A stretch of DNA of 58,579 bases from the IMG/VR virus record IMGVR_UViG_3300045988_039851. The stretch is one strand, 5' to 3'. Positions within the stretch are counted from its first letter, which is position 1, and each line of letters starts with the position of its first letter. Made by a program: the position numbers and the translations under genes. The notes under the pieces were generated by a model. That model did no database searches. It was not told the DNA's origin and was given only the letters and a program-made list of their open reading frames with translations. This DNA comes from a virus. Of this stretch, positions 14,593 to 58,579 are shown piece after piece.

Positions 14593-14669
14593 TGGGTACG
14601 GGGGCTGGATTTGAACCAGCGTCCTCCAGCTTATGAGGCTGGCGAGCTACCGTGCTGCTCTATCCCGCC
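14593..14669 (-). tRNA. tRNA with CAU anticodon (Met / initiator-like, or Ile2 if lysidinylated), CCA encoded
   Basis: Hand-folded cloverleaf: D arm GAGC-AGCACGGTA-GCTC, anticodon arm CCAGC-CTCATAA-GCTGG, T arm GCTGG-TTCAAAT-CCAGC. The acceptor stem has 4 GC pairs, 1 GU pair and 2 mismatches. Confidence 0.75.
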
Positions 14670-44147: not shown

Positions 44148-45245
44148 ATGCCAGAATTGACAGGAAACAATCTTGTCGAAAAGAGCAAGGCATTGGTTTG
44201 GGCGAAGTTTACGGACTACACAGCAGGCGAGCTTCGGCTGCTTGAGGTCTATCTGAGCCGTATCAATCCGAGAGACCCAGAAAGCTCTAACGTGTCGTTT
44301 ACGCTGGCTGAATATTGCAAGCTGCTGGATTTGAAGCTCAATTCAAAGAACTTGAAGTCGCAAGTTAAGCACTTTTTGGGCAACGTGGTTTCAGTACCAC
44401 TGAATACAGATGGAACGGAATATGTGATGTATCCACTGTTCACAAAGGCAGAGGTTAAGTTCAATCGGGAATCCTTGTCCTATGATGTTTCAATTAACTG
44501 CAATCCTGACTTACGGCCTGTGTTCTTCGATATTGCAAGAAGCGGCTACGTCAAATATCGCCTGCGCTATACGATTGGGATGAAACAGCAAGCATCTATT
44601 CTGATGTACAGCATGATTCGAGATTGGATGAATCGCTCTCTAACATCGAACAAGATTGGTTTGAAGCAGCTGCGTGACCACTTGGGGGCAAACGATGCAA
44701 GTTATGACGATTTCCGGGCTTTGCGCCGCAGAGTTCTTGAACCAGCAGTGGAAGAGATCAGCAATGTTTCAGACATTGTCGTTGACTTTGAAAAGATTTG
44801 CACAGGGCGAAAGGTAGTAGCAGTTGAGTTTCGATTCGGGTACAAATCCAAGCAGCCCGTCATAGATGCCGATTCTAGCGAGGTTGATTGTGAGACGGCT
44901 AATTCCAAGCCGGAAATCAAAAAAGCCGCCAGAAAACCCTGCACAAGCGGATATGAGGATTTCGACTGGTCTGTGTGTGACGAGCTAGAAAAGCAAGACT
45001 GCATTGACGTGGCGAAGGTAGTTGAGAAGTGGATGAAGAAAGAGCATCCTGAAATCAAGCTGCCGAGACGCAGAGAAGCGGTTTATGAGACGGTGAAAGC
45101 CGCATACAATGACATCTTGTCTTTGGACAGGTCTCCGTTCCCTGACAGACCCGTTGGCTATCTGATTAGAAGCGTGGACAAGGCAGGTATCGTAGACAGG
45201 TATATGCCAGCGTTCTATTCCATTGAAGCACTTAGCAGCAAATAA
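44148..45245 (+). CDS. repB: Plasmid replication initiator (Rep_3/RepB-like)
   Basis: 365 aa with N-terminus NNLVEKSKALVWAKFTDYTAGELRLLEVYLSRINPRDP. It immediately follows its iterons. Confidence 0.75.
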   Translation: MPELTGNNLVEKSKALVWAKFTDYTAGELRLLEVYLSRINPRDPESSNVSFTLAEYCKLLDLKLNSKNLKSQVKHFLGNVVSVPLNTDGTEYVMYPLFTKAEVKFNRESLSYDVSINCNPDLRPVFFDIARSGYVKYRLRYTIGMKQQASILMYSMIRDWMNRSLTSNKIGLKQLRDHLGANDASYDDFRALRRRVLEPAVEEISNVSDIVVDFEKICTGRKVVAVEFRFGYKSKQPVIDADSSEVDCETANSKPEIKKAARKPCTSGYEDFDWSVCDELEKQDCIDVAKVVEKWMKKEHPEIKLPRRREAVYETVKAAYNDILSLDRSPFPDRPVGYLIRSVDKAGIVDRYMPAFYSIEALSSK

Positions 45246-45260
45246 AGAAAGGATGATAAA

Positions 45261-45512
45261 ATGGCAAAAGTTCAAAGTTCCGTTTTGTACAGAGAAGTGG
45301 CGAAATTGCGAAACGACTTCGATTGTAACAGAGTTGAGTTTTTCACCGTTGGGGACGGAATTGATACGCCAATTCATGTAATGGTCGGTTCTCGCGGGCA
45401 CGGCACTGTAGAACCAGACGAAGCGATTGAGGAAGGAAAGGCGCTAATTGAAGCTGGTAAGGCAGCAAAAAAATTTAAGTACAATGGTTATTTTGTAATG
45501 TGGGGAGAATAA
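45261..45512 (+). CDS. Hypothetical protein
   Basis: 83-aa ORF between rep and parA. Confidence 0.55.
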   Translation: MAKVQSSVLYREVAKLRNDFDCNRVEFFTVGDGIDTPIHVMVGSRGHGTVEPDEAIEEGKALIEAGKAAKKFKYNGYFVMWGE

Positions 45513-45514
45513 AA

Positions 45515-46285
45515 ATGGCAAAAATTATAGCTGTCGCCAACCAGAAAGGCGGCGCAGGAAAGACCACCACAAGCACCTGTCTGGCTGGTGCGTTACAGTT
45601 GCTTGGCAAGAAAGTCCTGCTGGTGGACTGCGATGCCCAGTGCAACGCAACGGATACTTACGGCGCACAGACAGAGGACGTATGTACCCTGTTTGACGTG
45701 ATGACCCGGCAAGGCACGGCCGAAGAAGGAATCCAGCACTGTGAAGCTGGTGACATTCTGCCATCCGACAGCGCATTGAAGGACATTGACGAGCAGCTTG
45801 TCCGGGACATTGGCAAGAACTTCCGGCTGCGAGAAGCCCTTGAAAGCGTATCCGAGCAGTACGATTATATTGTGCTGGACACTCCCCCGCAGCTTGGTCT
45901 TGCGCTTGTGAACGCACTGATCGCCGCCAACAGCATTATCGTTCCCATCACAGCAGACCGATACGCACTGGCTGGTTTGAGCCAGCTTTCGCAGACCATC
46001 GGCGATGTTCGCAGATATTTCAATCCGACTTTGAAGATTGAAGGATTGCTTCTGAACCAGTACAAGAGCCGTGAGAACCTGTCCAAAGAGGTTGTGGAGC
46101 AGCTTCCTGTGATTGCACAGAGTATGGGAACAACCCTGCTGGACGTGAAGATTAGACCGTCTATGGGCGTTCGCAAGGCGCAGGCAGAGCGGCACAGCCT
46201 GTTTAGCGGCGACACGGCAAAGAGTACCAGCGCAGAGGATTTCAAAGAGCTGGCAAAGAAGATTGTGGAAGGAGAAGAAAAATGA
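45515..46285 (+). CDS. parA: ParA/Soj-type partition ATPase
   Basis: MAKIIAVANQKGGAGKTTTS deviant Walker A; ATG follows GGGGAG. Confidence 0.9.
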   Translation: MAKIIAVANQKGGAGKTTTSTCLAGALQLLGKKVLLVDCDAQCNATDTYGAQTEDVCTLFDVMTRQGTAEEGIQHCEAGDILPSDSALKDIDEQLVRDIGKNFRLREALESVSEQYDYIVLDTPPQLGLALVNALIAANSIIVPITADRYALAGLSQLSQTIGDVRRYFNPTLKIEGLLLNQYKSRENLSKEVVEQLPVIAQSMGTTLLDVKIRPSMGVRKAQAERHSLFSGDTAKSTSAEDFKELAKKIVEGEEK

Positions 46286-48724: not shown

Positions 48725-48734
48725 GCGAAAAACA

Positions 48735-48766
48735 CCCCTGCGTAGCCATTAGTGGTTACACAGGGG
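48735..48766. terminator. Hairpin between convergent genes (bidirectional terminator candidate)
   Basis: CCCCTGCGTAGCC..GGTTACACAGGGG, pairing at 11 of 13 positions. Confidence 0.55.
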
Positions 48767-48773
48767 TTCTGCT

Positions 48774-49412
48774 TTACTTATCAGCAATGCAATCCCAGTA
48801 GAGATACGCCTTGCCATCTGCGGCATCCGCGTCCTCAAGGAACGCTTTTGCCATGTCAGCGTAGAAGCCCGGAGTATCAACGGACTGGCGCTTTGCGACC
48901 TGACAATAATCTGAGTACATCATGTTCATGACAGCCCAGAAATCGTTCGGGTCACAGGTGATATTGCGCTGTTTGGCAACGTCCTGCGTCTGTTCCAGCG
49001 TCCAGTGACAACCCTTCGTGCCGTCAGCATTCACCATGCTGTCACACCATTCCTCCGCTTCATCGTGAGTGAGGTGCTGACGCGGCATCTTGATGGAACG
49101 ACTGTCTGCACCGCCAAGTTCGTACTGCCCAGACCGCTTGTCCCAGTCGCCGTTCTGCGAGAAGCCGATTTGCGGCATTTTGCGCCCATACTCAACGTCA
49201 GGGTAGCGGGGGATAGGGTAAGGGTCGATGTAGCGGTTTTCCTCCTGCGGATAGTATGGATAGCGGTCGTTGCCACCTTCCAGCTTACGCAGACGGCGTT
49301 CCATCTCACGCTCCCTGCGGTCACGCTCTTCCTCAAGGCGGTCACGTTCCGGCTCACGGTCTTTGTCGTGGTCACGGAGCATCATCATGCGGCGAAAATT
49401 GTTCTTGCCCAT
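48774..49412 (-). CDS. Cargo-island protein 5: charged Arg/Glu/Asp N-terminus, Pro/Tyr-rich middle, conserved-looking C-terminal domain
   Basis: 212 aa with RBS GAGGAGG. C-terminus HWTLEQTQDVAKQ..MNMMYSDYCQVAK. Confidence 0.65.
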   Translation of the reverse strand: MGKNNFRRMMMLRDHDKDREPERDRLEEERDRREREMERRLRKLEGGNDRYPYYPQEENRYIDPYPIPRYPDVEYGRKMPQIGFSQNGDWDKRSGQYELGGADSRSIKMPRQHLTHDEAEEWCDSMVNADGTKGCHWTLEQTQDVAKQRNITCDPNDFWAVMNMMYSDYCQVAKRQSVDTPGFYADMAKAFLEDADAADGKAYLYWDCIADK

Positions 49413-49425
49413 AATCTATACCTCC

Positions 49426-49797
49426 TCAAGAAATGGACGCGGGCGCACCGGCGTGGGAACGGCAGAAGCAGCCAAGATATTTGAACGTGCTGGTGCCGGT
49501 CGCAGACGTTACAACGCGGGTAGCATAGCGGGTGCGGGTGTGGATGCTTTCAGCGGTTGCCTGAGCGCAGTTGCAGTCGGTCAGGGGGTATGCGGTAGTT
49601 CCTGCACCGATGGTGATGACCACAGGGGCGTTGATGGTGGTCGTGTCCGGCAAAGCCTGAGCAATGACCAGACAATATTTTTCTCCCGCTGCGTAAGAGC
49701 CAGCAGGGATATTGATGGTCAGCGTGTCGTTGGCGAACGTAACAGACTGGCTCAAGACCAGATGGGGGCAGAGTTTGCAGCTTGTTTTGCAAGCCAT
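49426..49797 (-). CDS. Cargo-island protein 4: 123-aa Cys-rich beta-rich protein
   Basis: RBS AGGAGGAAAA. 8 Cys: N-terminal CKTSCKLC, central DCNC, C-terminal GCFC. Confidence 0.65.
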   Translation of the reverse strand: MACKTSCKLCPHLVLSQSVTFANDTLTINIPAGSYAAGEKYCLVIAQALPDTTTINAPVVITIGAGTTAYPLTDCNCAQATAESIHTRTRYATRVVTSATGTSTFKYLGCFCRSHAGAPASIS

Positions 49798-49811
49798 AAT
49801 GTTTTCCTCCT

Positions 49812-49848
49812 AAAAAATCAGGGGCAGAGGTGTCTTACCCCTGCCCCG
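49812..49848 (-). terminator. Rho-independent terminator after the 290-aa gene
   Basis: Minus strand reads GGGGCAG..CTGCCCC followed by TGATTTTTT. Confidence 0.7.
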
Positions 49849-49882
49849 ATGGTTCACCCGGTGTTATCGGGGAGTGTGTTGG

Positions 49883-50755
49883 TTAGCAGCAGCCGCAGCA
49901 GTTCACGCCCACGTTGGGGTTTGCCACCTGATAAGCGGGAATCGGACGAGGATTCACACGGTTCAGGATGGTATCAGTCTGCCGAGACATCACGGTGGTC
50001 AGAAGCGCATTCTGCCGATCCTGAGAAGCCGCGAACTTCAGGCTCTGGTTCTCGGCGGTCAGAGTGGCAATCTTGTCCTGCGTGAAGTAGTCCATCATGC
50101 TGCGGAAGTTGGCGTTGCAGTTGTCCACGATGGCACGGGCGTTGTCTGCGATAGCCTGACGGGTAGCGCAGTCCTCCGTTGCGATGGTGTACTTCAGATC
50201 GCCGATCAGCTGCTTGTTCTCGCAGCAGCAAGATGCCAGCTGCGTGGCAAGTGCGGTCTGACCTGCCTGCCGTGCGTTGCCCTCCTGCATGATGGCAAGG
50301 CTGATGGCATTGTCGCCGTTGGACACGCTGCGTTCCAGACCGTTCACCAGCTGTGCGTTCTGGTAGCCAAGCTGACAGATGGCACTGTTCACGCCCGCAA
50401 AGCCGTTCGCAATGTTGGCGTTGATGCCATTGATCTGTGCCAGCTGGTCATAGCCAAGAGAGCAGATACCGCTCTGGATGCCAGCCAGAGAGCGGGAGGT
50501 GTCCTGCTGGTAGAAGCCCTCAGACAGAGCCGCACGGGTGTCTGCACCGCCCTGACCGGTTGCGCCAGTGCCGACCAGATAGGGGATGTAAGCGTTCATG
50601 CCGTTGTCGCCGCCGTTCCGGCCATAGCCGTTCGTGCCCCAGCCGAAGATGATAGCGAGGATAATAACAGCCCAAAGACCCTCGTTGCCGAAGAATCCGC
50701 CGTTGTTATTGCCGCCGTCCTGCCCAGCCAGATAGCCAGTTGCAAAATCGTCCAT
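49883..50755 (-). CDS. Cargo-island protein 3: Gly/Asn-rich N-terminus with one TM helix, Gln/Asn/Ala-rich body, C-terminal CCGCC
   Basis: 290 aa with RBS AAAGGAG. Has GGFFGNEGLWAVIILAIIFGWG, an internal SCCCEN, and ends VNCCGCC. Confidence 0.7.
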   Translation of the reverse strand: MDDFATGYLAGQDGGNNNGGFFGNEGLWAVIILAIIFGWGTNGYGRNGGDNGMNAYIPYLVGTGATGQGGADTRAALSEGFYQQDTSRSLAGIQSGICSLGYDQLAQINGINANIANGFAGVNSAICQLGYQNAQLVNGLERSVSNGDNAISLAIMQEGNARQAGQTALATQLASCCCENKQLIGDLKYTIATEDCATRQAIADNARAIVDNCNANFRSMMDYFTQDKIATLTAENQSLKFAASQDRQNALLTTVMSRQTDTILNRVNPRPIPAYQVANPNVGVNCCGCC

Positions 50756-50877
50756 AACAAAACTCCTTTCAGTTTTGCGTTATGCTATCCCATCGCCGTA
50801 TGCGATGGGCGAAGCCAAACAAATGCGGTTTTTGTCAAGTCCGCAAAACTGAGAAGCGTTTCGCTTAGAGGAATGCG

Positions 50878-51129
50878 TTATCGGGGCAGCGTCAAATTTA
50901 GGACGCTTGCCAGCTGGTTCAGGTCGATACCGCGCTCTTTGGCGAGGTTCTGCGCCATCGTTCGGAGCTGTGCTTCGTTTTTGCCCTGAATCAGGTTCAA
51001 ACCTTGCATGATAGGAGCATTCTGCCCGCTTAACTGCTGGATAAGCCCCATCGGGTTCTGCCCGGCACGAGCCAGATTTGCAAGCTGCATGATAGGGCTG
51101 TGAGTAATCATATCAATCGGAGAGGGCAT
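50878..51129 (-). CDS. Cargo-island protein 2 (83 aa, Gln/Asn/Leu-rich)
   Basis: RBS AAAGGAGAA. Confidence 0.6.
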   Translation of the reverse strand: MPSPIDMITHSPIMQLANLARAGQNPMGLIQQLSGQNAPIMQGLNLIQGKNEAQLRTMAQNLAKERGIDLNQLASVLNLTLPR

Positions 51130-51132
51130 CGC

Positions 51133-51651
51133 TTATTCTCCTTTCTTTGCGGTGGCAGCGGGCTTCGAAAAGCTCTTCTGCCACTTTTCCAGTTCATCCA
51201 GCCGGTGGACGAGGGCGTTGTACTGCTCAATAGGCACATACTGCTGTGTCGGTGTAGCGGTCTGCTGTGCCTGTTGTGCTTGCATCTGCCTCCACGCTTC
51301 CGGGCTGTAAAACTCTAACACGTCAGATTCACAAGTGTTTGGGTTCAGACGTTTGCAGTAGATGACACCACTACGCAAATCCGGGCAATACGTCCATCTT
51401 CCATACAGATCAGATGGAATTGCCAAAAACTCCTCTCTGCTGGAAACAGGTCTGCCAAGCAACCAACCGCCGTCCTGTGCCGACTGCTGAACAGGCTGCT
51501 GCCCATTCATCGGCTGCGGACGCTGCGGTTGTGCCTGTTGCATCTGCGTGTTGGGCAGGGGAGTGGCAAGCCCAACTGTGCCCATGCCACCGTAAGGATT
51601 GACAGGCTGCTGTGGAACGTAGGGCGCTCCGGGTGCCGGATAATAGCTCAT
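51133..51651 (-). CDS. Cargo-island protein 1: Pro/Gln-rich N-terminus, Cys-containing C-terminal domain
   Basis: ATG at 51651 follows AAGGAGGG. Sequence begins MSYYPAPGAPYVPQQPVNPYGG. Confidence 0.65.
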   Translation of the reverse strand: MSYYPAPGAPYVPQQPVNPYGGMGTVGLATPLPNTQMQQAQPQRPQPMNGQQPVQQSAQDGGWLLGRPVSSREEFLAIPSDLYGRWTYCPDLRSGVIYCKRLNPNTCESDVLEFYSPEAWRQMQAQQAQQTATPTQQYVPIEQYNALVHRLDELEKWQKSFSKPAATAKKGE

Positions 51652-51724
51652 AAAACATCCCTCCTTGTGCATCCAGTGTACTGCATCGGCAAAAAGCAAG
51701 AGACAACAAAGGCACAACGAAGGA

Positions 51725-51768
51725 CAAAAAAGAAAAGCGCCCACACGGAAAAATCCGCATGAGCGCTT
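51725..51768 (-). terminator. Leader terminator/attenuator upstream of the cargo island
   Basis: Minus strand: AAGCGC..GCGCTT stem with an inner GCGG/CCGT helix, then TTTTCTTTTTT. It ends about 75 nt before the ATG at 51651. Confidence 0.55.
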
Positions 51769-51854
51769 AACTGTTAAGGGCCTCACATTGGAAGCGAAAA
51801 TAAAATATCACATTTTGACTTGCAAGACAAGAATTTCGGCAAAACTAGTGCGAA

Positions 51855-51930
51855 TAAAACAAAAATCCCCCACTTTGCCTACAACGTACCCCGCGTGGAA
51901 CGCAGGGCTTCGACAAAGCAGGGGATTTTA
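51855..51930 (-). terminator. Long rho-independent terminator after the sigma-like gene
   Basis: Minus strand: AAAATCCCC..GGGGGATTTTTGTTTT with an inner CCCTGCG/CGCGGGG helix. Confidence 0.65.
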
Positions 51931-52209
51931 CTCAAAAATTTTTGTGATGCCTTTCAGCCGGTAGCCTACCGCCGTCCGACTGTAATGTGTCTGTGCTGCA
52001 ATATCCGGCAGCGGGAGCCGCTCCACGTACCGTAAAAGAGCTATCTTTCGGTCTACCCTCCCAAGCGGTGCGTTTTTGATGGCTGCGGTCATCTGCTGTC
52101 GGTCAAGTCCTTGCAGCGCAGCGGGCAGCACTACGCGAGCCGCCGCCACGGGCAGCACCGAGCCAAAAAGGCTGCGGTAACTGTCCTGCGTTGCGTACCA
52201 TTTTGCCAA
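51928..52209 (-). CDS. Sigma-70 region-4-like HTH protein (late-activator-like), TTG start in the track
   Basis: Motif RVDRKIALLRYVERLPLPDIAAQTHYSRTAVGYRLKG. There is no clear RBS at the TTG. Confidence 0.45.
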   Translation of the reverse strand: MAKWYATQDSYRSLFGSVLPVAAARVVLPAALQGLDRQQMTAAIKNAPLGRVDRKIALLRYVERLPLPDIAAQTHYSRTAVGYRLKGITKIFE

Positions 52210-52321
52210 TGCTGGCGAAACGGTGACATTTTGTCACCATTTTCGTAATGTCACGAAATTGCTCTTGTGCGGCGTACATTTTGTTGGTGTCAACAAAATG
52301 CTCGTATGTAGTGCTTGCCAT
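52103..52321 (-). CDS. ORF with a strong RBS overlapping the sigma-like ORF in another frame
   Basis: ATG at 52321 follows AAGGAGG. Only about the first 35 codons look protein-like, and the ORF contains three dyads. Confidence 0.3.
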   Translation of the reverse strand: MASTTYEHFVDTNKMYAAQEQFRDITKMVTKCHRFASIGKMVRNAGQLPQPFWLGAARGGGSRSAARCAART

Positions 52322-52331
52322 GATAACCTCC

Positions 52332-52670
52332 TTACTGCTTTTGCAATGCCTTCCGCATCTGGTCGAAGAAAAATTGAATGACCTTGCTCATGGTTTCCTC
52401 GGTGATAGCCCAGCTGACCAGCTTGCCCCATCGGCTATTGTCCAGATAGTGGCGCAGCATCTTGACGCACCACGCCTTGCGTTCTGCGCCGCGCTTGGTG
52501 CCCTGAATCTCCCGCTCTGCCTGAGTGATAAGGTTGAGCACCAGATTTTTGACTGCCGCGCCATAGCCCAGACGGATGCCGCCGATGGCGTAGAAGACGA
52601 GTCCGCCCAGCATCAGGATGACGGCCACAGGAACAGGAATGATGCTCAAAATTTCATTGATTGCTTCCAT
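52332..52670 (-). CDS. Holin-like membrane protein
   Basis: 112 aa with an N-terminal TM segment ILSIIPVPVAVILMLGGLVFYAIGG. Lies downstream of the endolysin. Confidence 0.55.
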   Translation of the reverse strand: MEAINEILSIIPVPVAVILMLGGLVFYAIGGIRLGYGAAVKNLVLNLITQAEREIQGTKRGAERKAWCVKMLRHYLDNSRWGKLVSWAITEETMSKVIQFFFDQMRKALQKQ

Positions 52671-53043
52671 GATTGGTAACTCCTTTCAAAAGATAATTGT
52701 CGATGCTAGCCTTGCTTTTCTGCATCCCTTCGTGATTGTCCCCGGAGAGCTGAGCGTCCAGCAGATTTCGCACACCATCAAGGGCCAAGCAAATCTCTTC
52801 GTCGATCGCGTCGAAGCGGGTGAGGTCGCGTTTTAAGGCCGCTGCGTGCTGAGACGAAATGCTTTCGACTGCGCCCAGCCGTTGCTCGATAGCGTCAAGC
52901 CGCTGGTTTTGCGCGGCGTCGGGTGCCTGCGCCTTTTTGATATACTTGTGGATGATGTCCAGCACCTTGTCCAGCGTGACCGCTCCTGCACACACGCTGC
53001 CAACAACCCCCAGCACCCACAAAAGAGCCTGCTCTTTAGTCAT
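52654..53043 (-). CDS. Membrane-anchored lysis-associated protein (holin/spanin-like position)
   Basis: 129 aa with an N-terminal TM segment LLWVLGVVGSVCAGAV, then a coiled coil. Overlaps the endolysin stop by 4 nt. Confidence 0.45.
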   Translation of the reverse strand: MTKEQALLWVLGVVGSVCAGAVTLDKVLDIIHKYIKKAQAPDAAQNQRLDAIEQRLGAVESISSQHAAALKRDLTRFDAIDEEICLALDGVRNLLDAQLSGDNHEGMQKSKASIDNYLLKGVTNHGSNQ

Positions 53044-53840
53044 GCGCCCTCCCGGAGACGGGTCAGACCCTTCTTTCTGATGATACGGGGGTAGTTGAGG
53101 GTGGTCACGTTGAGGTCTACGTTGCCGGAGATGCCCGGCACGCTGCCCTTGCTGGTGTGCTGGTGCGCATTGTACTTAAAGCTCACTTTGGGGGCCTTTC
53201 CGGTGTAATCGGCCAGCCAGACGTCGTAAGGCTTGAGCGCTGCGCCGCCCATATAAAGGCGGGAGTTGGCAAAACTGGTATAGGTGTAGAGCTGAGCGTA
53301 AAAGCCCATCGCCTCGATACGAGCCAGTGCATAAGCCGTCAGGTCGGTGAGGGCCTGCTTGCCCAGTTGCTTGAACTTATTGTCCTCTACGTCTACAGCC
53401 ACCGGAAGGGTCAGCTCTTTCCCCCGCAGAGCTTCGGACAGAAGGGCCAGCTCCTTATCTGCACCGGTGCGGCTGATGGCGTAGGTGTAGTAGTAGACGC
53501 CCACGTCCAGCCCAGCAGCCCGGGCGTTGCGGTAGTTATCCTCAAAGGTTGGGTCGATATACAGGCCGTCTGCCCGCTTGGAGAACTTTTTGTTGGTGGA
53601 TACCGTCTTGAGCATGACGCCCTTGTAGCCAGCCGCTTTGACCTTGCGCCAGCCGTCGAGGGTGATTTTGCCCTGATACCGGCTCACGTCGATGTACCGG
53701 TAGGGCGGATCGCCCTCCCAGCCGGGAGGAGCGGAGGCTTTGGTGTCCACGGTGGACGCCTTAGGAGAGGCATCTGCGGAGGGATGGGAAGGGCCAAAAA
53801 TGCCCGCGAGAAGGTTGCTCAAAAACTCAAGAAAGCTCAT
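53040..53840 (-). CDS. Endolysin, GH25 muramidase-like
   Basis: Motifs YIDVSRYQGKITLDGWRKVKAAGYKGVMLK and AAGLDVGVYYYTYA. Confidence 0.8.
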   Translation of the reverse strand: MSFLEFLSNLLAGIFGPSHPSADASPKASTVDTKASAPPGWEGDPPYRYIDVSRYQGKITLDGWRKVKAAGYKGVMLKTVSTNKKFSKRADGLYIDPTFEDNYRNARAAGLDVGVYYYTYAISRTGADKELALLSEALRGKELTLPVAVDVEDNKFKQLGKQALTDLTAYALARIEAMGFYAQLYTYTSFANSRLYMGGAALKPYDVWLADYTGKAPKVSFKYNAHQHTSKGSVPGISGNVDLNVTTLNYPRIIRKKGLTRLREGA

Positions 53841-53856
53841 ACAACCACGTCCTTCC

Positions 53857-54060
53857 TCAGGCGTTGCTTTCGCCTACGATTTCCTCAAACCCGCTCTTGA
53901 TGAGAATGCCCTTCACCTTCGGCTTCAGCAGACGAGGGCAGCGCTCATACAGAGCCTTTGCCTCCTCCACAGTCTCAGCGGACATGATCTCCTGTGCCCA
54001 TAACATAGCCATCATAAGTACCATCCTTTCGATTTTTTGTGTGATTTTATGCATAGACAA
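53857..54060 (-). CDS. Small XkdX-like tail/lysis-adjacent protein
   Basis: 67 aa between the fibre and lysis genes. Confidence 0.45.
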   Translation of the reverse strand: MSMHKITQKIERMVLMMAMLWAQEIMSAETVEEAKALYERCPRLLKPKVKGILIKSGFEEIVGESNA

Positions 54061-54379
54061 TCTCCGACATTTCCATCAGACATTGTGTAAGCATCTCGTT
54101 CTTTCCCTGAAGCTCTGCGATTTTCTCGGCGTCAGTCTTCTCGACAGGCTCCGCCCAATCCAGATACTTTTCGGGAGCAGCCGTGACCTTTTCGAGGTCG
54201 ATTTTGCTCTCATCAGCCACGATTTCCCGGTAGTCGCACTCCCACACCTGCTGCGCAGGCTGCGATTCGTCATACTGCCGCTCCGTCCACTGGCCGTTGA
54301 CACAGATAAAGATATACAGCGTATGGCCGTCACGTACAGACCGGGCGGCGGGCTGCTCTGCATCGAAACTTGCTTTCAT
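54047..54379 (-). CDS. Hypothetical tail-fibre-adjacent protein
   Basis: ATG at 54379 follows AAAGGAG; 110 aa. Confidence 0.5.
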   Translation of the reverse strand: MKASFDAEQPAARSVRDGHTLYIFICVNGQWTERQYDESQPAQQVWECDYREIVADESKIDLEKVTAAPEKYLDWAEPVEKTDAEKIAELQGKNEMLTQCLMEMSEIVYA

Positions 54380-54480
54380 GTGCAACAACTCCTTTCGTTT
54401 TATAGCTGTCTCATGCCGCCTTGCTTTCAGTGGGGCTTCCCCCCTCTGCCGCAAGCGGCATTCACCCCCGGCGCAAGGTG

Positions 54481-56703
54481 TCAATCGGCGGCCAAGAAAT
54501 TCCAGTACCCGCCCCCAAGCGCGGACCAGCAATACACATACGAAGCGCCAGCAATCGACCAGTACCCGAGACCCCCGCCTTGCAAGTATTCGCGCAGGGT
54601 GTTCTTGCTTGCGTTTCCACCACCATAGACGCGGTCGCCGACACCTGTTTTATCTCCGGAGCCTCGCGTTGCGGGCCATGTTACGCAGGTCTCGGGGTCA
54701 AAGCCGATGTCTCCAATCCACCAGTCGTCCGCGGGAAAGTTGCCGACCTTTTTATACTTCGCCAGAATCTCCGCATCAGTCTTGGCATGCGCTATGCCAG
54801 CAGGACAGACATATACGTCCTTGCCGTTGCTGTCGTCAAAGGCGAGCGCCATATCGCTGATCGTTTCATGGCCGCCCACGGCGTACTCGATGCCCTGCAC
54901 GCGATAGGGGTGCTTAAAATCCGTATTGCTGCCGGGACTGCCATCATGGTGGCCGATGACCGCGTCCGTTGTGCCGCTATGCCAGTGCATCGTAGACAGA
55001 GTGATAGGTGCGTTCAGGGTGTCAGACAAGGAGACGGGCATGGTATCAAAAGCGTCGCAGTCCAGATACACAGCACTGGTCGTATCATCGATGGGTTCAA
55101 TCTTGAGAATTTCGGCTTCGTCTGCATACTGATGGATAGTCGAAAAACCACGGTCATTATTGACAGTGCCGTCGCTGCCCTTAAAACCGTATCCAACAGA
55201 AACCCGGCTCCCAACCAGCAAGCTTTTTGCCTGCGCCGCTGTGACAGGGAAGTAGGTCAGCTTCTCGCTTCGCTGTACAGCCGCGGGATACTGGAAATCA
55301 TAGCCCGTGCATCCTGCGTACTTTTCCTGACTGGACTTCACAGCGCACTTGATGGAATTGAACAGAATTTGCCACGTGGCTCTCTCGCCGCCTGCGCCCT
55401 TATAGCCAGCGCCCTTCTTACCATAGTCTGTAATCAGGCTGTTATACGACTGGTTGCGTGCCGGAACGAGGTCGTACACGCTTCGCAGCAACCCATCCTC
55501 GCCCACGCCACTGAAGAACTTCGAGTGAATGACGTAGGGATATACGGTGTCGCCAGACTTGGCAGCGGCCCACGGGGTAAATCCGTCTCGCGGGGAGTCA
55601 GTGATAGACCACAGGATATAATCCGGGTCGCTGTCGTCCCACTTGACATAAGGAGTCATCTGGATGACGCCAACGTCCACAGTACCAGTCTTGCGGTAAT
55701 TGTCGCTCAGATGCTCGATAGCGGTGGGGTAGGCGTGGCCGGAGGAGTCTCTCCTGTAATTGCAGTTGTACCACTTGAAAAGAGGAATGTCGGCATAATC
55801 ATCACGACCCTCGATGGTGTCGGTAGACGGCTCACACACAAGGCCCGCGTTGTCGTCCAGCTTCTCGCAGTTGACGGTGGGGTTCGTGGCAAAGCGTGGG
55901 ATTTTTACGGTGTAGACCTTTCCAGTGCGGGGGAGCTTAAAGAGCACGTCAACGGCAATATCAATGGCGCTCGCGGTGGGGATGCCAAAGTCCAGCACAG
56001 CATTGTGCTCATCGCCGGAGTTTGTGACGGTCGGAGCGGCACCAGCGTCAAGACCGGTCACAGTACCGACCGCAATGGTGGCAGCAGGGCCAGTCTCACC
56101 GGTGTCTCCTTTTTCGCCCCTGTCACCCTTTTCGCCTTTAAAATTACCACTGGCGATGCCGTCTTTCAGCTCCTGCAAGCTGTCGGAGGCCTGTTGGGCG
56201 CTTGTAGACGCATTACCTGCACTGGTGGCAGCTTCATTGGCTGCGGTCTTTGCGGCTTCTGTGGCGGAATTTACCTGCTCAACGGCTTTGTCCCGGGCAG
56301 CATTGACGGCCTGCGTAGCGGTAGACTGCGTATCGGTCACGGCCTTTACTGCTGCGCTCTTAGCCGCTTCTACGTCGTTGAGGGCGCTGGCCTTGGCCGT
56401 ATCCACCGCAGCGGTCGCGGACGTCTGCTTGACTGCCACAGCCTCCAGCGCATCGGATTTCGCAGAGTCGATTTTGTCCAGCGCGTCAGTGCGGACTTCT
56501 TCGGTCTGCTGCCGGGCGGTTTCAGCCCGGGCCGCTGCGGTTTCAGCATTATCCCGGGCGGTTCCTGCCTGCTGTGCGGCCTGTTCCGAAGCGACGCGGT
56601 TCGCTTCCTGCTCCTTGACCCACTGCTCTTCCGTGCCGGTATACCCGTACTTGACGGCGATCGCGTAGGCACTGTATGGGCCGATTTTCGTTTTCTTGCT
56701 CAT
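54481..56703 (-). CDS. Tail fibre with Ala-rich coiled coil and a short collagen-like segment
   Basis: 740 aa with GEKGDRGEKGDTGETGP and long A/T/S/E heptad-like repeats. Confidence 0.8.
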   Translation of the reverse strand: MSKKTKIGPYSAYAIAVKYGYTGTEEQWVKEQEANRVASEQAAQQAGTARDNAETAAARAETARQQTEEVRTDALDKIDSAKSDALEAVAVKQTSATAAVDTAKASALNDVEAAKSAAVKAVTDTQSTATQAVNAARDKAVEQVNSATEAAKTAANEAATSAGNASTSAQQASDSLQELKDGIASGNFKGEKGDRGEKGDTGETGPAATIAVGTVTGLDAGAAPTVTNSGDEHNAVLDFGIPTASAIDIAVDVLFKLPRTGKVYTVKIPRFATNPTVNCEKLDDNAGLVCEPSTDTIEGRDDYADIPLFKWYNCNYRRDSSGHAYPTAIEHLSDNYRKTGTVDVGVIQMTPYVKWDDSDPDYILWSITDSPRDGFTPWAAAKSGDTVYPYVIHSKFFSGVGEDGLLRSVYDLVPARNQSYNSLITDYGKKGAGYKGAGGERATWQILFNSIKCAVKSSQEKYAGCTGYDFQYPAAVQRSEKLTYFPVTAAQAKSLLVGSRVSVGYGFKGSDGTVNNDRGFSTIHQYADEAEILKIEPIDDTTSAVYLDCDAFDTMPVSLSDTLNAPITLSTMHWHSGTTDAVIGHHDGSPGSNTDFKHPYRVQGIEYAVGGHETISDMALAFDDSNGKDVYVCPAGIAHAKTDAEILAKYKKVGNFPADDWWIGDIGFDPETCVTWPATRGSGDKTGVGDRVYGGGNASKNTLREYLQGGGLGYWSIAGASYVYCWSALGGGYWNFLAAD

Positions 56704-57431
56704 TTATATACCGCCTCCAAATTGCCCTGACCGTCATCCTGCAAGGTGACGTCATCGGTCAGGTTATCTGATACCACAAGCGACAGAGTGCCGCTGTTGT
56801 CATCGTCTTCCAGATACAAAAAGCCTTTGTTCTCTGCTGCCTGTGCGGCAAGCTCTGCCTGACGAGTGGCTTCGGCGGCGCTGGTAGCGGAGGACCGGGC
56901 GTTTTTCTCGGCGTTCTCCGCGCTTACCAATGCCGACGCCGCGCTCGCTGCCGCTTCATCGGCAGATGTTATTGCCCGCTCTGCCGCGTCCAGCGCTTCC
57001 GTTTTGGACTGCTCCGCCGATGCTGCCGATTCCTTCACGGCATCCACAAAAGCCTGCCATGCGGGTGTTCCCGGTTCCGGCTCTGTGCCGTCCTCCGTGC
57101 CGGAGTTTGCGGCCACCCTGTAGCGCAGGTCAGCGCTGGTCACGGTCTTGGTGCCGTCGCTGCCCTCAAAGGTGATGCAGCCATTGCCGGGCTGTGCGGT
57201 CACGCTGGCAGGTACATCCACATAGCCGTCCACAACCAGCGAGGAAAGCGGGTCTTTGCCGTCCGGGACGTGCCAGAAGCAGCGGATAGCCAGCCCTTCC
57301 CACTCACCGGAAGCGGTGACAGCAAGGCGGTACACGCCTCGGTTCTTAGTGTAGCCGAAGCGCAGCATCTGCTCATAGCCTGCCAGCTTTGCAGCGCCGT
57401 TGGAGGCAAGAGATACGCTAAGTTCGATCAT
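56700..57431 (-). CDS. Tail fibre/baseplate-associated protein with an Ala-rich coiled coil
   Basis: 243 aa with a 4-nt overlap to the next gene. Confidence 0.6.
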   Translation of the reverse strand: MIELSVSLASNGAAKLAGYEQMLRFGYTKNRGVYRLAVTASGEWEGLAIRCFWHVPDGKDPLSSLVVDGYVDVPASVTAQPGNGCITFEGSDGTKTVTSADLRYRVAANSGTEDGTEPEPGTPAWQAFVDAVKESAASAEQSKTEALDAAERAITSADEAAASAASALVSAENAEKNARSSATSAAEATRQAELAAQAAENKGFLYLEDDDNSGTLSLVVSDNLTDDVTLQDDGQGNLEAVYK

Positions 57432-57446
57432 AAGCGCGCTCCTCTC

Positions 57447-57806
57447 TTATGCGGTATAAGGCTCGCCGGTGACGTTTTCGTACTCCGCAGCAGTCAAGCG
57501 CTGACGCTCCACCAGCAGTTTGACCATGTCTTTGTTCCAGTGGCCAGCGGTGTATGCGTCCTTGGGGGTGACGCTGCTTTCGATGGGCACGCCATCAAGA
57601 AGACACAGATACTCCATCAGTGAGGCGGTTTTTGCGGTGTCGGCATCGTTGTTTAGAAAAAGAGAATTGAACGTATCCGCGTTCATTGGCGTGCCTTCAA
57701 CGATAGGCTTGTCGTTACGGACGAGAGTGACAACCTCTGATGTGCCATCAGATTTTATCATAGTCCAACGCCCGGGATATTTTGCCTTTCGGTCAACAAA
57801 GCGCAT
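57447..57806 (-). CDS. Tail-associated hypothetical protein
   Basis: 119-aa ORF. Confidence 0.55.
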   Translation of the reverse strand: MRFVDRKAKYPGRWTMIKSDGTSEVVTLVRNDKPIVEGTPMNADTFNSLFLNNDADTAKTASLMEYLCLLDGVPIESSVTPKDAYTAGHWNKDMVKLLVERQRLTAAEYENVTGEPYTA

Positions 57807-58579
57807 TAGGGTTCACCTCCACATATAAGCTCAGAACAATAGATTAAATGGTCTTTAGCCATCGCTTCAATATCAAACAAAACCTTTTCCAATTGATTGA
57901 CAATCGAAAAACGATAGCTGAAGCTTCCCGGCGTTTCAGGGGTGGAACTTTTTCCGCTGCATTTTGAACGAATGGAGGATATGTTGCTCAGCCATCTAGT
58001 GCAGTCATCAGTAGTCAAGTAGTCATCTACACCCCAGACTGCTTCCGTAGACTCAATGACCGTAGCAGTGCCAGAGAAGAGAATCTTGCTGTCTCCATCG
58101 TAGTAAGCGCTAGCGTTGGTGACGTCGATAAAATCGTTCTCCACCACCCACCCGGGTTCCACCGAAGGCGGATAGAAGTTGTTGACGGCGGACATATACA
58201 GCTGATACTCCACGCCCTTTTCGAGTGGAAGGTCTCCCATGTCAAGGGTCACGTCGTTGTAGCCCCGGATAAGCTCCAGTGAGAGATCCACCAGTCGGGT
58301 TTGGTCAGCCGCCTTGCGCAAGATGGCCCGGCTTTTTCCGGCCACAAACCCCTTGATGCGGAAGGACATCGAGTGGAGCAACAAACCGGACTTTTTGGCG
58401 GTCAGCGGCACAAAGAACTCGGCGTGGGAGGGGTAGGCGTCCCACGATGGGATATCGCCGTTTTGGTTTCTCGCTGTAACAACTTCTACTTTTTTTTGAA
58501 CAATTCTTGCAGAATAATCTGCGCCAACGATTTCGGCAAGCTCCTTGATTCCGTTTTCGATGCGGTTGTAATCGGTGTA
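57806..58579 (-). CDS. C-terminal segment of the junction-spanning tail-fibre-like gene (start codon at 226)
   Basis: The frame stays open upstream of the track Met at 58411 to the window end, and continues in phase into 1-226. Confidence 0.8.
   Translation of the reverse strand, partial: YTDYNRIENGIKELAEIVGADYSARIVQKKVEVVTARNQNGDIPSWDAYPSHAEFFVPLTAKKSGLLLHSMSFRIKGFVAGKSRAILRKAADQTRLVDLSLELIRGYNDVTLDMGDLPLEKGVEYQLYMSAVNNFYPPSVEPGWVVENDFIDVTNASAYYDGDSKILFSGTATVIESTEAVWGVDDYLTTDDCTRWLSNISSIRSKCSGKSSTPETPGSFSYRFSIVNQLEKVLFDIEAMAKDHLIYCSELICGGEP
58489..58579. repeat. Terminal direct repeat, copy 2 (identical to 1-91)
   Basis: 91/91 nt identity, read directly. Confidence 0.95.

Follow-up and report, generated by a model that had tools for sequence, protein, structure and literature searches.

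Lysogenic-conversion cassettes are known from the junction between the lysis genes and the attachment (att) site, for example sak-scn-chp in Staphylococcus aureus phages and bor and lom in lambda. Membrane-anchored coiled-coil lysis proteins include the lambda i-spanin Rz and the T4 holin T with its antiholin RI. Among coat and exosporium proteins of Bacillus and Clostridioides are the collagen-like fibres of BclA, the Cys-rich ExsY/CotY and CdeC/CdeM, and the YjcZ proteins are tiny membrane proteins of 30-50 residues. The locus discussed here shares traits with each of these systems. It consists of five minus-strand genes, g1 to g5, and a small linked regulator gene, hth93, in the viral record IMGVR_UViG_3300045988_039851, a stretch of 58,579 nucleotides that is referred to as the window. 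It is well supported that a very widespread accessory cassette of gut phages, which is horizontally mobile, is represented here by one copy, and that its conserved core is made up of g3 (phrog_16490) and g5, in which a DUF7841 domain is joined to an Arg/Asp/Tyr-rich disordered segment. It is equally well supported that lineage-specific partners (g1, g2 and g4) and a small sigma70-region-4 helix-turn-helix (HTH) regulator accompany the core and that the typical place of the cassette is right after the lysis genes. The linkage of DUF7841, phrog_16490, phrog_21718 and the RNA motif DUF3800-VIII in one cassette, and the distribution of that cassette, are not described in the literature searched, including the work on DUF7841 and on crAss lysis and spanin topics.

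Like phage morons, the cassette is an accessory block with regulatory signals of its own; it fills the slot that separates the lysis genes from the integrase or att site, is missing in close relatives and recombines as one piece. It carries its own terminator and is missing from related genomes, as seen when crAss001 is compared with cr116_1 and in the deletions of two sister phage-plasmids (L097 and L098). Unlike morons, it keeps a syntenic set of five to six genes in phages from different phyla, is located in the late lysis block of crAss-like phages and brings no evident host benefit. Like Rz and T, g3 consists of a short tail at the N-terminus, a single transmembrane helix and a large C-terminal coiled-coil domain in which cysteines are conserved, and its gene is linked to holin and endolysin genes. 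However, there is no sequence or profile similarity to these proteins, the soluble partners of g3 have no counterpart among them and separate holin candidates are present. A two-component spanin combines an N-terminal transmembrane helix and a coiled coil, both found in g3, with an outer-membrane lipoprotein partner and a diderm host; g1, g2, g4 and g5 have no signal-peptide-like hydrophobic segment, no lipoprotein partner was found and most loci are in Clostridia, which are monoderm hosts. The coat, exosporium and YjcZ proteins resemble the cassette proteins in composition and in having no signal peptides, and the Gly-rich head, short helix and Cys/Gly tail of g3 are compatible with a collagen-like fibre. 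They differ in that none of their models matched, in that g3 proteins are about 250-300 residues long and in that the cassette occurs in phages of non-sporulating hosts. The closest relatives in the databases, DUF7841 in Pfam, PHROG families 16490 and 21718 and DUF3800-VIII in Rfam, of which g5, g3, g1 and the upstream hairpin are members, are families without an assigned function.

The g3 gene (50755-49883, minus strand) encodes a protein of 290 residues with an acidic Gly/Asn-rich head, a hydrophobic helix (GLWAVIILAIIFGWG), a variable stalk and a conserved C-terminal coiled-coil domain. This domain has an invariant CCC motif, a PxPAY motif and a Cys-rich tail; the protein contains 11 Cys residues, with SCCCEN as an internal motif and VNCCGCC at the end. 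In a Kyte-Doolittle scan of g1 to g5, a membrane-type hydrophobic segment was found in g3 alone, and none of the five proteins has a signal-peptide-like N-terminus. The match to the phrog_16490 hidden Markov model (HMM) has an E value of 2.3e-40. More than 7400 homologous clusters at 90% identity exist, none of which is named. At 50% identity the C-terminal domain falls into 724 clusters, and nearly all of their members are proteins of about 200-300 residues that carry the domain at the C-terminus.

The second core protein, g5 (49412-48774, minus strand, 212 residues), has a disordered N-terminal half rich in Arg, Asp, Glu and Tyr and a helical C-terminal domain. Residues 109-202 match Pfam DUF7841 (PF25223) with 90.7 bits against a cut-off of 25.2, and residues ~110-200 were modelled by AlphaFold2 at a predicted local distance difference test score (pLDDT) of 82-89. 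NCBI carries, under the label Segatella hominis, a 169-residue DUF7841 protein (P0193) with 91% identity to the C-terminal half of g5. The label is not used here as host evidence, as a mis-binned contig is more probable than recent transfer across phyla.

The partners are less conserved. Gene counts for hth93, g1, g2, g4 and g5 were obtained by iterative HMM searches on all open reading frames of 87 loci. The g1 gene (51651-51133, minus strand) encodes 172 residues when read from the ATG, although the mechanical reading frame extends to a GTG at 51786. A Pro/Gln/Tyr-rich head is followed by a small conserved middle, a short coiled coil and a charged tail. It matches phrog_21718 (E 3.4e-9), and its family lies directly upstream of g2/g3 in 71 of the 87 loci; no Pfam domain was found in any of 40 family members scanned, which gave scattered coiled-coil noise only. 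The g2 gene (51129-50878, minus strand), found between g1 and g3 in 45 loci, encodes 83 residues rich in Gln, Asn, Pro and Met with the C-terminal motif A-x-N-L-A-K-E-R-G-I-D, and its sole database signal is a sub-threshold Pfam E3_binding match (E 0.041). The g4 gene (49797-49426, minus strand) encodes a beta-rich protein of 123 residues with 8 Cys and an N-terminal CxxxCxxC motif; it has 987 homologues, with C7, C10 and C42 invariant in the alignments. It is present in 38 loci and g5 in 21. Upstream of g1 lies hth93 (51928-52209, minus strand), which encodes a 93-residue HTH protein of sigma70-region-4/LuxR-like type. Its matches to Pfam Sigma70_r4_2 (E 4.6e-4) and to NCBIfam models of extracytoplasmic function sigma factors (~1e-3) are all below the cut-offs. 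A local jackhmmer search placed homologues on the same strand upstream of g1 in 46 of the 87 loci, and the homologue in locus L093 carries a precomputed Sigma70_r4 match.

An earlier note on this DNA had described a unit of five minus-strand genes with strong ribosome-binding sites. All five reading frames were recovered where it placed them, each with a GGAGG-type site ~8 nt upstream of the ATG, and the unit has to be extended by hth93, a sixth linked gene that had been missed. The features it had pointed out (the Pro/Gln head of g1, the single helix and the SCCCEN and VNCCGCC motifs of g3, the eight Cys residues of g4 and the Arg/Glu/Asp head of g5) are all present, and the helix of g3 is indeed the only one of its kind in the unit. 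The profile and structure searches that it had called for led to DUF7841, phrog_16490 and phrog_21718 and returned no functional or PDB match.

Solved structures, known defence systems and sporulation families gave no match to any cassette protein. Apart from DUF7841, no Pfam domain was found in the cassette proteins, and g1 to g5 showed no Pfam or NCBIfam homology to coat or exosporium proteins, with BclA, ExsY/CotY and CdeC types tested. The earlier note had likened g3 to YjcZ-type proteins. NCBIfam, which holds sporulation models, gave no match for g3 even at E <= 1, and 290 residues compare poorly with a few tens; this likeness is not supported. The resemblance of the cassette proteins to coat proteins is compositional only. 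No structural (virion) family of PHROG or Pfam was matched and the PHROG matches on the structural side were all sub-threshold, in line with the remark in the note that no virion or replication signature is recognisable in any of the proteins. A search of PADLOC-DB v2 gave no significant match; the best E values were ~0.02 for g2 and g3, and g1, g4, g5 and hth93 had no match. Profiles of g3 and g4 found no relatives among PDB sequences. An AlphaFold2 model of g4 from a 40-sequence alignment was unusable (pLDDT 47.8). When the g5 DUF7841 model was compared with the PDB by Foldseek, only noise was returned (best E 0.3, HIV matrix, template modelling score ~0.2-0.3), and the same model against BFVD found DUF7841 proteins only, most of them from crAss-like phages. 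An exhaustive search found no informative domain fusion of the g3 C-terminal domain; a 4483-residue protein with 11 separate matched stretches was discounted, uninspected, as repeat or coiled-coil noise. Cluster look-ups yield only the names "hypothetical protein" and DUF7841.

The distribution of the cassette in other elements, which the earlier note had proposed to examine, takes in many Clostridia prophages as well as crAss-like and Bacteroides phages. A scan of GTDB genomes returned 121 loci, and almost every one belongs to the Clostridia, in the families Oscillospiraceae, Acutalibacteraceae, Lachnospiraceae and Ruminococcaceae; Anaerotruncus colihominis and Muriventricola aceti are isolates among them. 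Also among the carriers are bins that were assigned to the non-sporulating Subdoligranulum, Collinsella and Anaeroplasmatales. The genes keep the same order and strand throughout the 87 loci, with the small HTH gene followed by g1, g2, g3, g4 and g5, and dozens of Clostridia loci share this order at 30-60% identity. Many other loci have a second version of the cassette in which g3 is followed by a 140-residue Cys-containing beta protein and then by a helical protein with a disordered centre rich in Gly, Ser, Tyr, Arg and Asp. A small HExxH protein with a sub-threshold SprT-like match often comes next in this version. Homology of g4 to the 140-residue beta protein or to beta proteins of crAss-like phages was considered, as was homology of g1 to crAss proteins that were read by eye as a beta-barrel plus coiled coil. 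In both cases the hhalign probability was below 5%, and the partners in other cassette types are therefore called analogues and not homologues. It was also considered, on the basis of the motifs ERGIDLNQL and NKGVDPNLM, that g2 might correspond to an N-terminal extension of the crAss and archaeal g3 proteins. The region in question was also chosen by hhalign, but with a probability of only 0.5%, and the idea is not supported.

Outside the Firmicutes, a tblastn search located homologues of g3 in crAss-like phages of many genera and in C3_41T2LP, a cultured Bacteroides phage. It also located them in viruses that have been assigned to Methanomassiliicoccales, where the homologue had been tagged phrog_16490 by the depositor. 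A DUF7841 gene lies immediately upstream of g3 in at least 10 crAss-like genomes, and the Pfam domain was confirmed in the cassettes of cr10_1, csAssE-Sib and C3_41T2LP. Of the pair, g3 alone extends to viruses of gut methanogens. The cassette of cr10_1 is inside the lysis block, between an annotated holin and an L,D-transpeptidase-type gene. In cr116_1 it lies between the lysis genes and homologues of crAss001 gp31 and gp32 (gp31/major capsid protein), and crAss001 has only a 236-bp gap at this place, which indicates that the cassette is an accessory insertion and not core machinery. Bacteroides and methanogenic archaea do not sporulate, and crAss-like phages are not classical lysogens. Judged from the genomes that carry it, the cassette is tied neither to sporulating hosts nor to lysogeny.

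The position of the cassette follows a pattern. In four phage lineages with different endolysins it lies after the lysis genes and before a convergent integrase. The endolysins that precede it are of the GH25, CHAP, C39-like peptidase and PG_binding/amidase types, with holins alongside. In a Blautia prophage (L061) it comes right after a protein that matches phrog_937 ("hemolysin"), which we take to be XhlA-like. An integrase was found within a few kb downstream in 20 of the 70 loci with enough downstream sequence, and 19 of the 20 are convergent. In three prophages g5 is followed by a tRNA or tmRNA gene, which marks the attachment site. Exceptions to the pattern include two loci that have the cassette directly after host genes at the edge of the prophage.

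The window itself looks like a phage-plasmid, as the earlier note had concluded. Its ends overlap exactly over 91 bp (1-91 = 58489-58579), so that it represents a complete circular genome of ~58.5 kb; a Rep3 initiator (44148-45245) and ParA (45500-46285) are encoded on the plus strand in a plasmid block that is convergent on the cassette, and no integrase is present among the window reading frames scanned. Close relatives such as L004 have an integrase at the position of the Rep3/ParA genes. The cassette of the window adjoins the plasmid block rather than a convergent integrase or a tRNA/tmRNA gene, and its location between the lysis genes and the plasmid block, also pointed out in the note, is a classic moron slot. 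The late operon on the minus strand runs from the structural genes across the circle junction to the tail-fibre-like genes (54481-58411), the lysis genes, hth93 and the cassette. The lysis block starts with a GH25 endolysin (53040-53840, minus strand). It is followed, within 52332-53840 on the same strand, by a 129-residue protein with an N-terminal hydrophobic helix and, last, by a 112-residue holin-like protein with hydrophobic segments (phrog_15303), so the endolysin stands ahead of the putative holins. The G+C content of the cassette (56.1%) is not foreign relative to its upstream neighbours, the lysis genes (56.2%) and the tail-fibre block (55.7%), and differs from that of the plasmid block (44.8%). 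The 9.8-kb block 48774-58579 has ~56% G+C and the rest of the genome has 45-49%. This suggests that cassette, lysis genes and tail-fibre genes were acquired or exchanged as one envelope-interaction block.

Rearrangements were seen in sister phage-plasmids that have the same Rep3/ParA block. A tail-fibre-like protein that is intact in L004 has had its N-terminal part fused in frame to the C-terminal half of g3 with three different junctions (P0054, P0068 and P0073), and collagen repeats are retained in P0068 only. At the fusion loci (L097 1699-3066 and L098 1811-2650), hth93, g1, g2 and the N-terminal half of g3 with its helix have been lost and g4 and g5 have been kept. In-frame deletions in the g3 stalk are found in P0048, P0049 and P0051. 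Together the fusions and stalk deletions point to a modular, fibre-like design of g3. They argue for a C-terminal domain that is an independent module compatible with a trimeric fibre, for a stalk that can vary freely in length and for upstream genes that the element does not need for its maintenance. These deletions and fusions, and the comparison of crAss001 with cr116_1, are the reason for regarding the cassette as accessory, dispensable and mobile.

The hairpins around the cassette, whose z-scores were measured against shuffled controls, are all far more stable than the controls. A long terminator had been described at 51855-51930; the hairpin (51864-51927, downstream of hth93) and its U run are real, but the element (51855-51927, minus strand) is a full-length copy of the DUF3800-VIII motif, Rfam RF03075. 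The match covers model positions 1-64 with 82.1 bits against a gathering cut-off of 40.2 (E 1.9e-15), and the hairpin has a minimum free energy of -40.8 kcal/mol and a z-score of -5.5. The discoverers of the DUF3800-VIII class proposed no function for it and reported that several members are followed by terminators (PMC5737381). At the corresponding place between its HTH gene and g1, the relative L052 has RAGATH-31, another hairpin motif from the catalogues. A promoter-like site (TTGCAA-17-TATTTT, 51825-51797, minus strand) lies exactly where it had been reported; it agrees with the consensus at 8 of 12 positions, which is under the scan threshold, and it is kept in L004 and not in L007. The leader terminator and the internal terminator named in the note are hairpins with T runs at the places given. 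The leader hairpin (51725-51768, stem 51768-51735, minus strand) has 15 pairs, 8 of them G-C. Both L004 and L007 have kept it; in L004 one G-C pair is replaced by A-T, a compensatory change, and the homology of L007 with the window starts exactly at this hairpin. A second leader hairpin (51657-51725, minus strand), near-invariant in sequence in L004 and L007, pairs the g1 ribosome-binding site (AAGGAGGG), and the whole leader region (51652-51800) folds with -57.3 kcal/mol (z -6.3). The 122-nt spacer between g2 and g3 (50756-50877, minus strand) is also structured (-44.2 kcal/mol, z -5.05), and no Rfam family was found in it above noise. The internal terminator-like hairpin between g3 and g4 (49812-49847, stem 49847-49821, minus strand) has 11 pairs, 8 of them G-C, followed by TGATTTTTT. 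An intrinsic terminator after g5 that was absent from the note (~48728-48767, minus strand, -29.3 kcal/mol, z -4.4) consists of a hairpin and U run and faces the convergent plus-strand plasmid block.

Across the loci, terminator-like hairpins occur upstream of g1 in 51 of 74 (with a generous search window) and in the g3/g4 spacer in 11 of 42; none was found at 46 g1/g2 junctions or at 25 g4/g5 junctions. This arrangement fits graded expression, with g1-g3 expressed more than g4-g5. Conditional expression, which the earlier note had proposed, is plausible because the leader hairpin is conserved with a compensatory change and the second hairpin pairs the g1 ribosome-binding site. The description of the cassette as a self-contained accessory unit with its own leader and terminators is also supported.

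What might such a cassette do? The best explanation, put forward tentatively and with less than even confidence, is that it encodes a conditionally expressed assembly, anchored in the membrane by g3, that acts at the cell envelope around the time of lysis. Three points favour this explanation: the cassette is linked to lysis genes in unrelated lineages, crAss-like phages among them; its only membrane protein is combined with soluble partners devoid of signal peptides; and its G+C content is that of the tail-fibre and lysis genes. The g3 protein would insert into the cytoplasmic membrane by its single helix and would form an elongated, probably trimeric, coiled-coil stalk in which the CCC motif and the Cys tail may staple the chains together or bind metal. 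The low-complexity proteins g1, g2, g4 and g5, made without signal peptides, would dock on g3 to give a membrane-associated assembly. Transcription may start at the cassette's own weak promoter, probably aided by the HTH protein, and would have to pass the leader terminator and the hairpin masking the g1 ribosome-binding site, and the internal attenuator would lower g4 and g5 relative to g1-g3. The assembly would act at the host envelope in the lytic cycle, at about the time of lysis and with no spore remodelling; it could tune or complete envelope disruption or egress, or it could protect the progeny from debris.

Several observations weigh against an envelope assembly of this kind. In phages of the Dulem virus 39 type the cassette comes after the integrase and not beside lysis genes, and in C3_41T2LP it is beside recombination genes. 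In the window two strong terminators separate the late operon from g1, which is more typical of an independent moron than of a late gene. The charges that flank the g3 helix weakly favour an N-out/C-in topology, at odds with the Cys knots and collagen fusions, which suggest an extracytoplasmic, exposed C-terminus. The g1 and g4 proteins have no detectable homology to their positional counterparts in other cassette types, so that the partners are not universally conserved. To our knowledge, no known lysis function needs such proteins in monoderm hosts.

A rival explanation is a moron-type lysogenic-conversion or exclusion module. Such a module would be expressed from its own promoter in the prophage or plasmid state or early in infection, and a membrane complex built on g3 would block superinfection or trigger abortive infection. 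We consider this less likely than an envelope assembly but a serious rival. It agrees with the two terminators that insulate the cassette from late transcription and with the terminator that the cassette has of its own. It also agrees with the classic moron position, with lysis genes on one side and the integrase, att site or plasmid block on the other, where the cassette is sometimes the last set of genes before a tRNA or tmRNA, with the pairing of a membrane protein and a dedicated HTH regulator, and with a presence/absence polymorphism and frequent rearrangement as in conflict genes. However, no PADLOC model matched, neither an enzymatic nor an NTPase domain is present, the promoter, itself weak, is lost in L007, and in crAss-like phages the cassette lies in or beside the late lysis genes on the same strand. 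The exclusion proteins known to us are single small proteins and not disorder-rich cassettes of five to six genes. If this explanation is correct, the cassette would be a new phage-borne defence or superinfection-exclusion system. Of the lysogenic-conversion module in the earlier note, the accessory unit in a moron slot is supported, and the spore-coat and exosporium details are not.

Accessory virion components are a less likely explanation still. The proteins would be head or tail fibres, decoration proteins or ejected proteins that adapt particles to the gut, with the g3 helix as a virion anchor or a membrane-insertion element. The in-frame fusion of the g3 C-terminal half behind a tail-fibre-like N-terminal domain, with collagen repeats kept in one of three fusions, is in keeping with this, as are the cassette of the Blautia prophage L061, which lies between capsid genes and a fibre gene, and the cassette of cr10_1, which adjoins genes annotated as virion structural. 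Homologues in crAss-like phages have been annotated "viral fiber" or "spike" by depositors, but these annotations are guesses at the level of coiled coils. The absence of PHROG structural matches argues against virion components, and so does the absence of the cassette from crAss001, whose virion has reportedly been solved. The cassette usually follows lysis genes, or lies by recombination genes in C3_41T2LP; a 15-residue aliphatic helix flanked by Gly/Asn is atypical of soluble virion proteins; and a single set of partners would need to suit siphovirus as well as crAss-type particles.

A more speculative possibility, to which we attach very little probability, is a self-assembling matrix or coat cross-linked through Cys and Tyr. 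It would be made late, released by lysis and nucleated on g3-bearing membrane, and it would harden when strictly anaerobic gut content meets oxygen, protecting progeny phage or membrane-wrapped particles between hosts. If so, it would be the counterpart, in viruses of prokaryotes, of occlusion bodies or spore coats and would explain why phages of obligate anaerobes from three phyla share the cassette. The proposal of the earlier note, in which the spore or cell surface of a lysogenic host is remodelled by proteins of spore-coat, exosporium or YjcZ-like type, is the most improbable, for although the Cys-rich and Gly/Asn-, Pro/Gln- and Arg/Asp/Tyr-rich composition without signal peptides, the many Clostridia hosts that may sporulate and the moron-like position would suit it, no NCBIfam or Pfam sporulation, coat or exosporium model matched, and the presence of the core pair in Bacteroides and crAss-like phages, of g3 in viruses of methanogenic archaea and of the cassette in bins of hosts that never sporulate contradicts the proposal and makes a spore-coat role unlikely.

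The g3 family ranks with the more abundant gene families of gut phages that are still uncharacterised, and its linkage to DUF7841 spans siphovirus-type Clostridia prophages, a phage-plasmid and crAss-like phages. A conserved, mobile membrane module beside lysis genes points to an unrecognised step between phage and host envelope, be it lysis control, exclusion or particle protection. Tractable models are the prophage of Anaerotruncus colihominis DSM 17241 (locus L014), which has its cassette at about 1,677,000-1,679,800 of NZ_CP102255, Muriventricola aceti and the Bacteroides phage C3_41T2LP. Even if the function were ordinary, for example that of a moron confined to a single lineage, the cassette would be an annotation anchor for thousands of "hypothetical" genes.

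Some further features were observed in and around the cassettes. Small HExxH proteins of ~105-130 residues are found at the edges of many cassettes in Clostridia and crAss-like phages (for example L021 10104-10427, L061 10072-10822, and L003 2886-3233 and 5466-5861). One has a sub-threshold SprT-like match and two match phrog_1233; in L087 an annotated PolyVal metallopeptidase is at this position, and the window has no HExxH protein. A tRNA-Met (CAT) gene is located between the terminase and portal genes of the window (14593-14669, minus strand). In several cassette phages (L091 3179-4309, L012 3874-3950, L013 465-541 and L088 4152-5186) a reverse transcriptase of the diversity-generating-retroelement type or RT-18 RNA motifs lie just upstream, near the tail-fibre genes.

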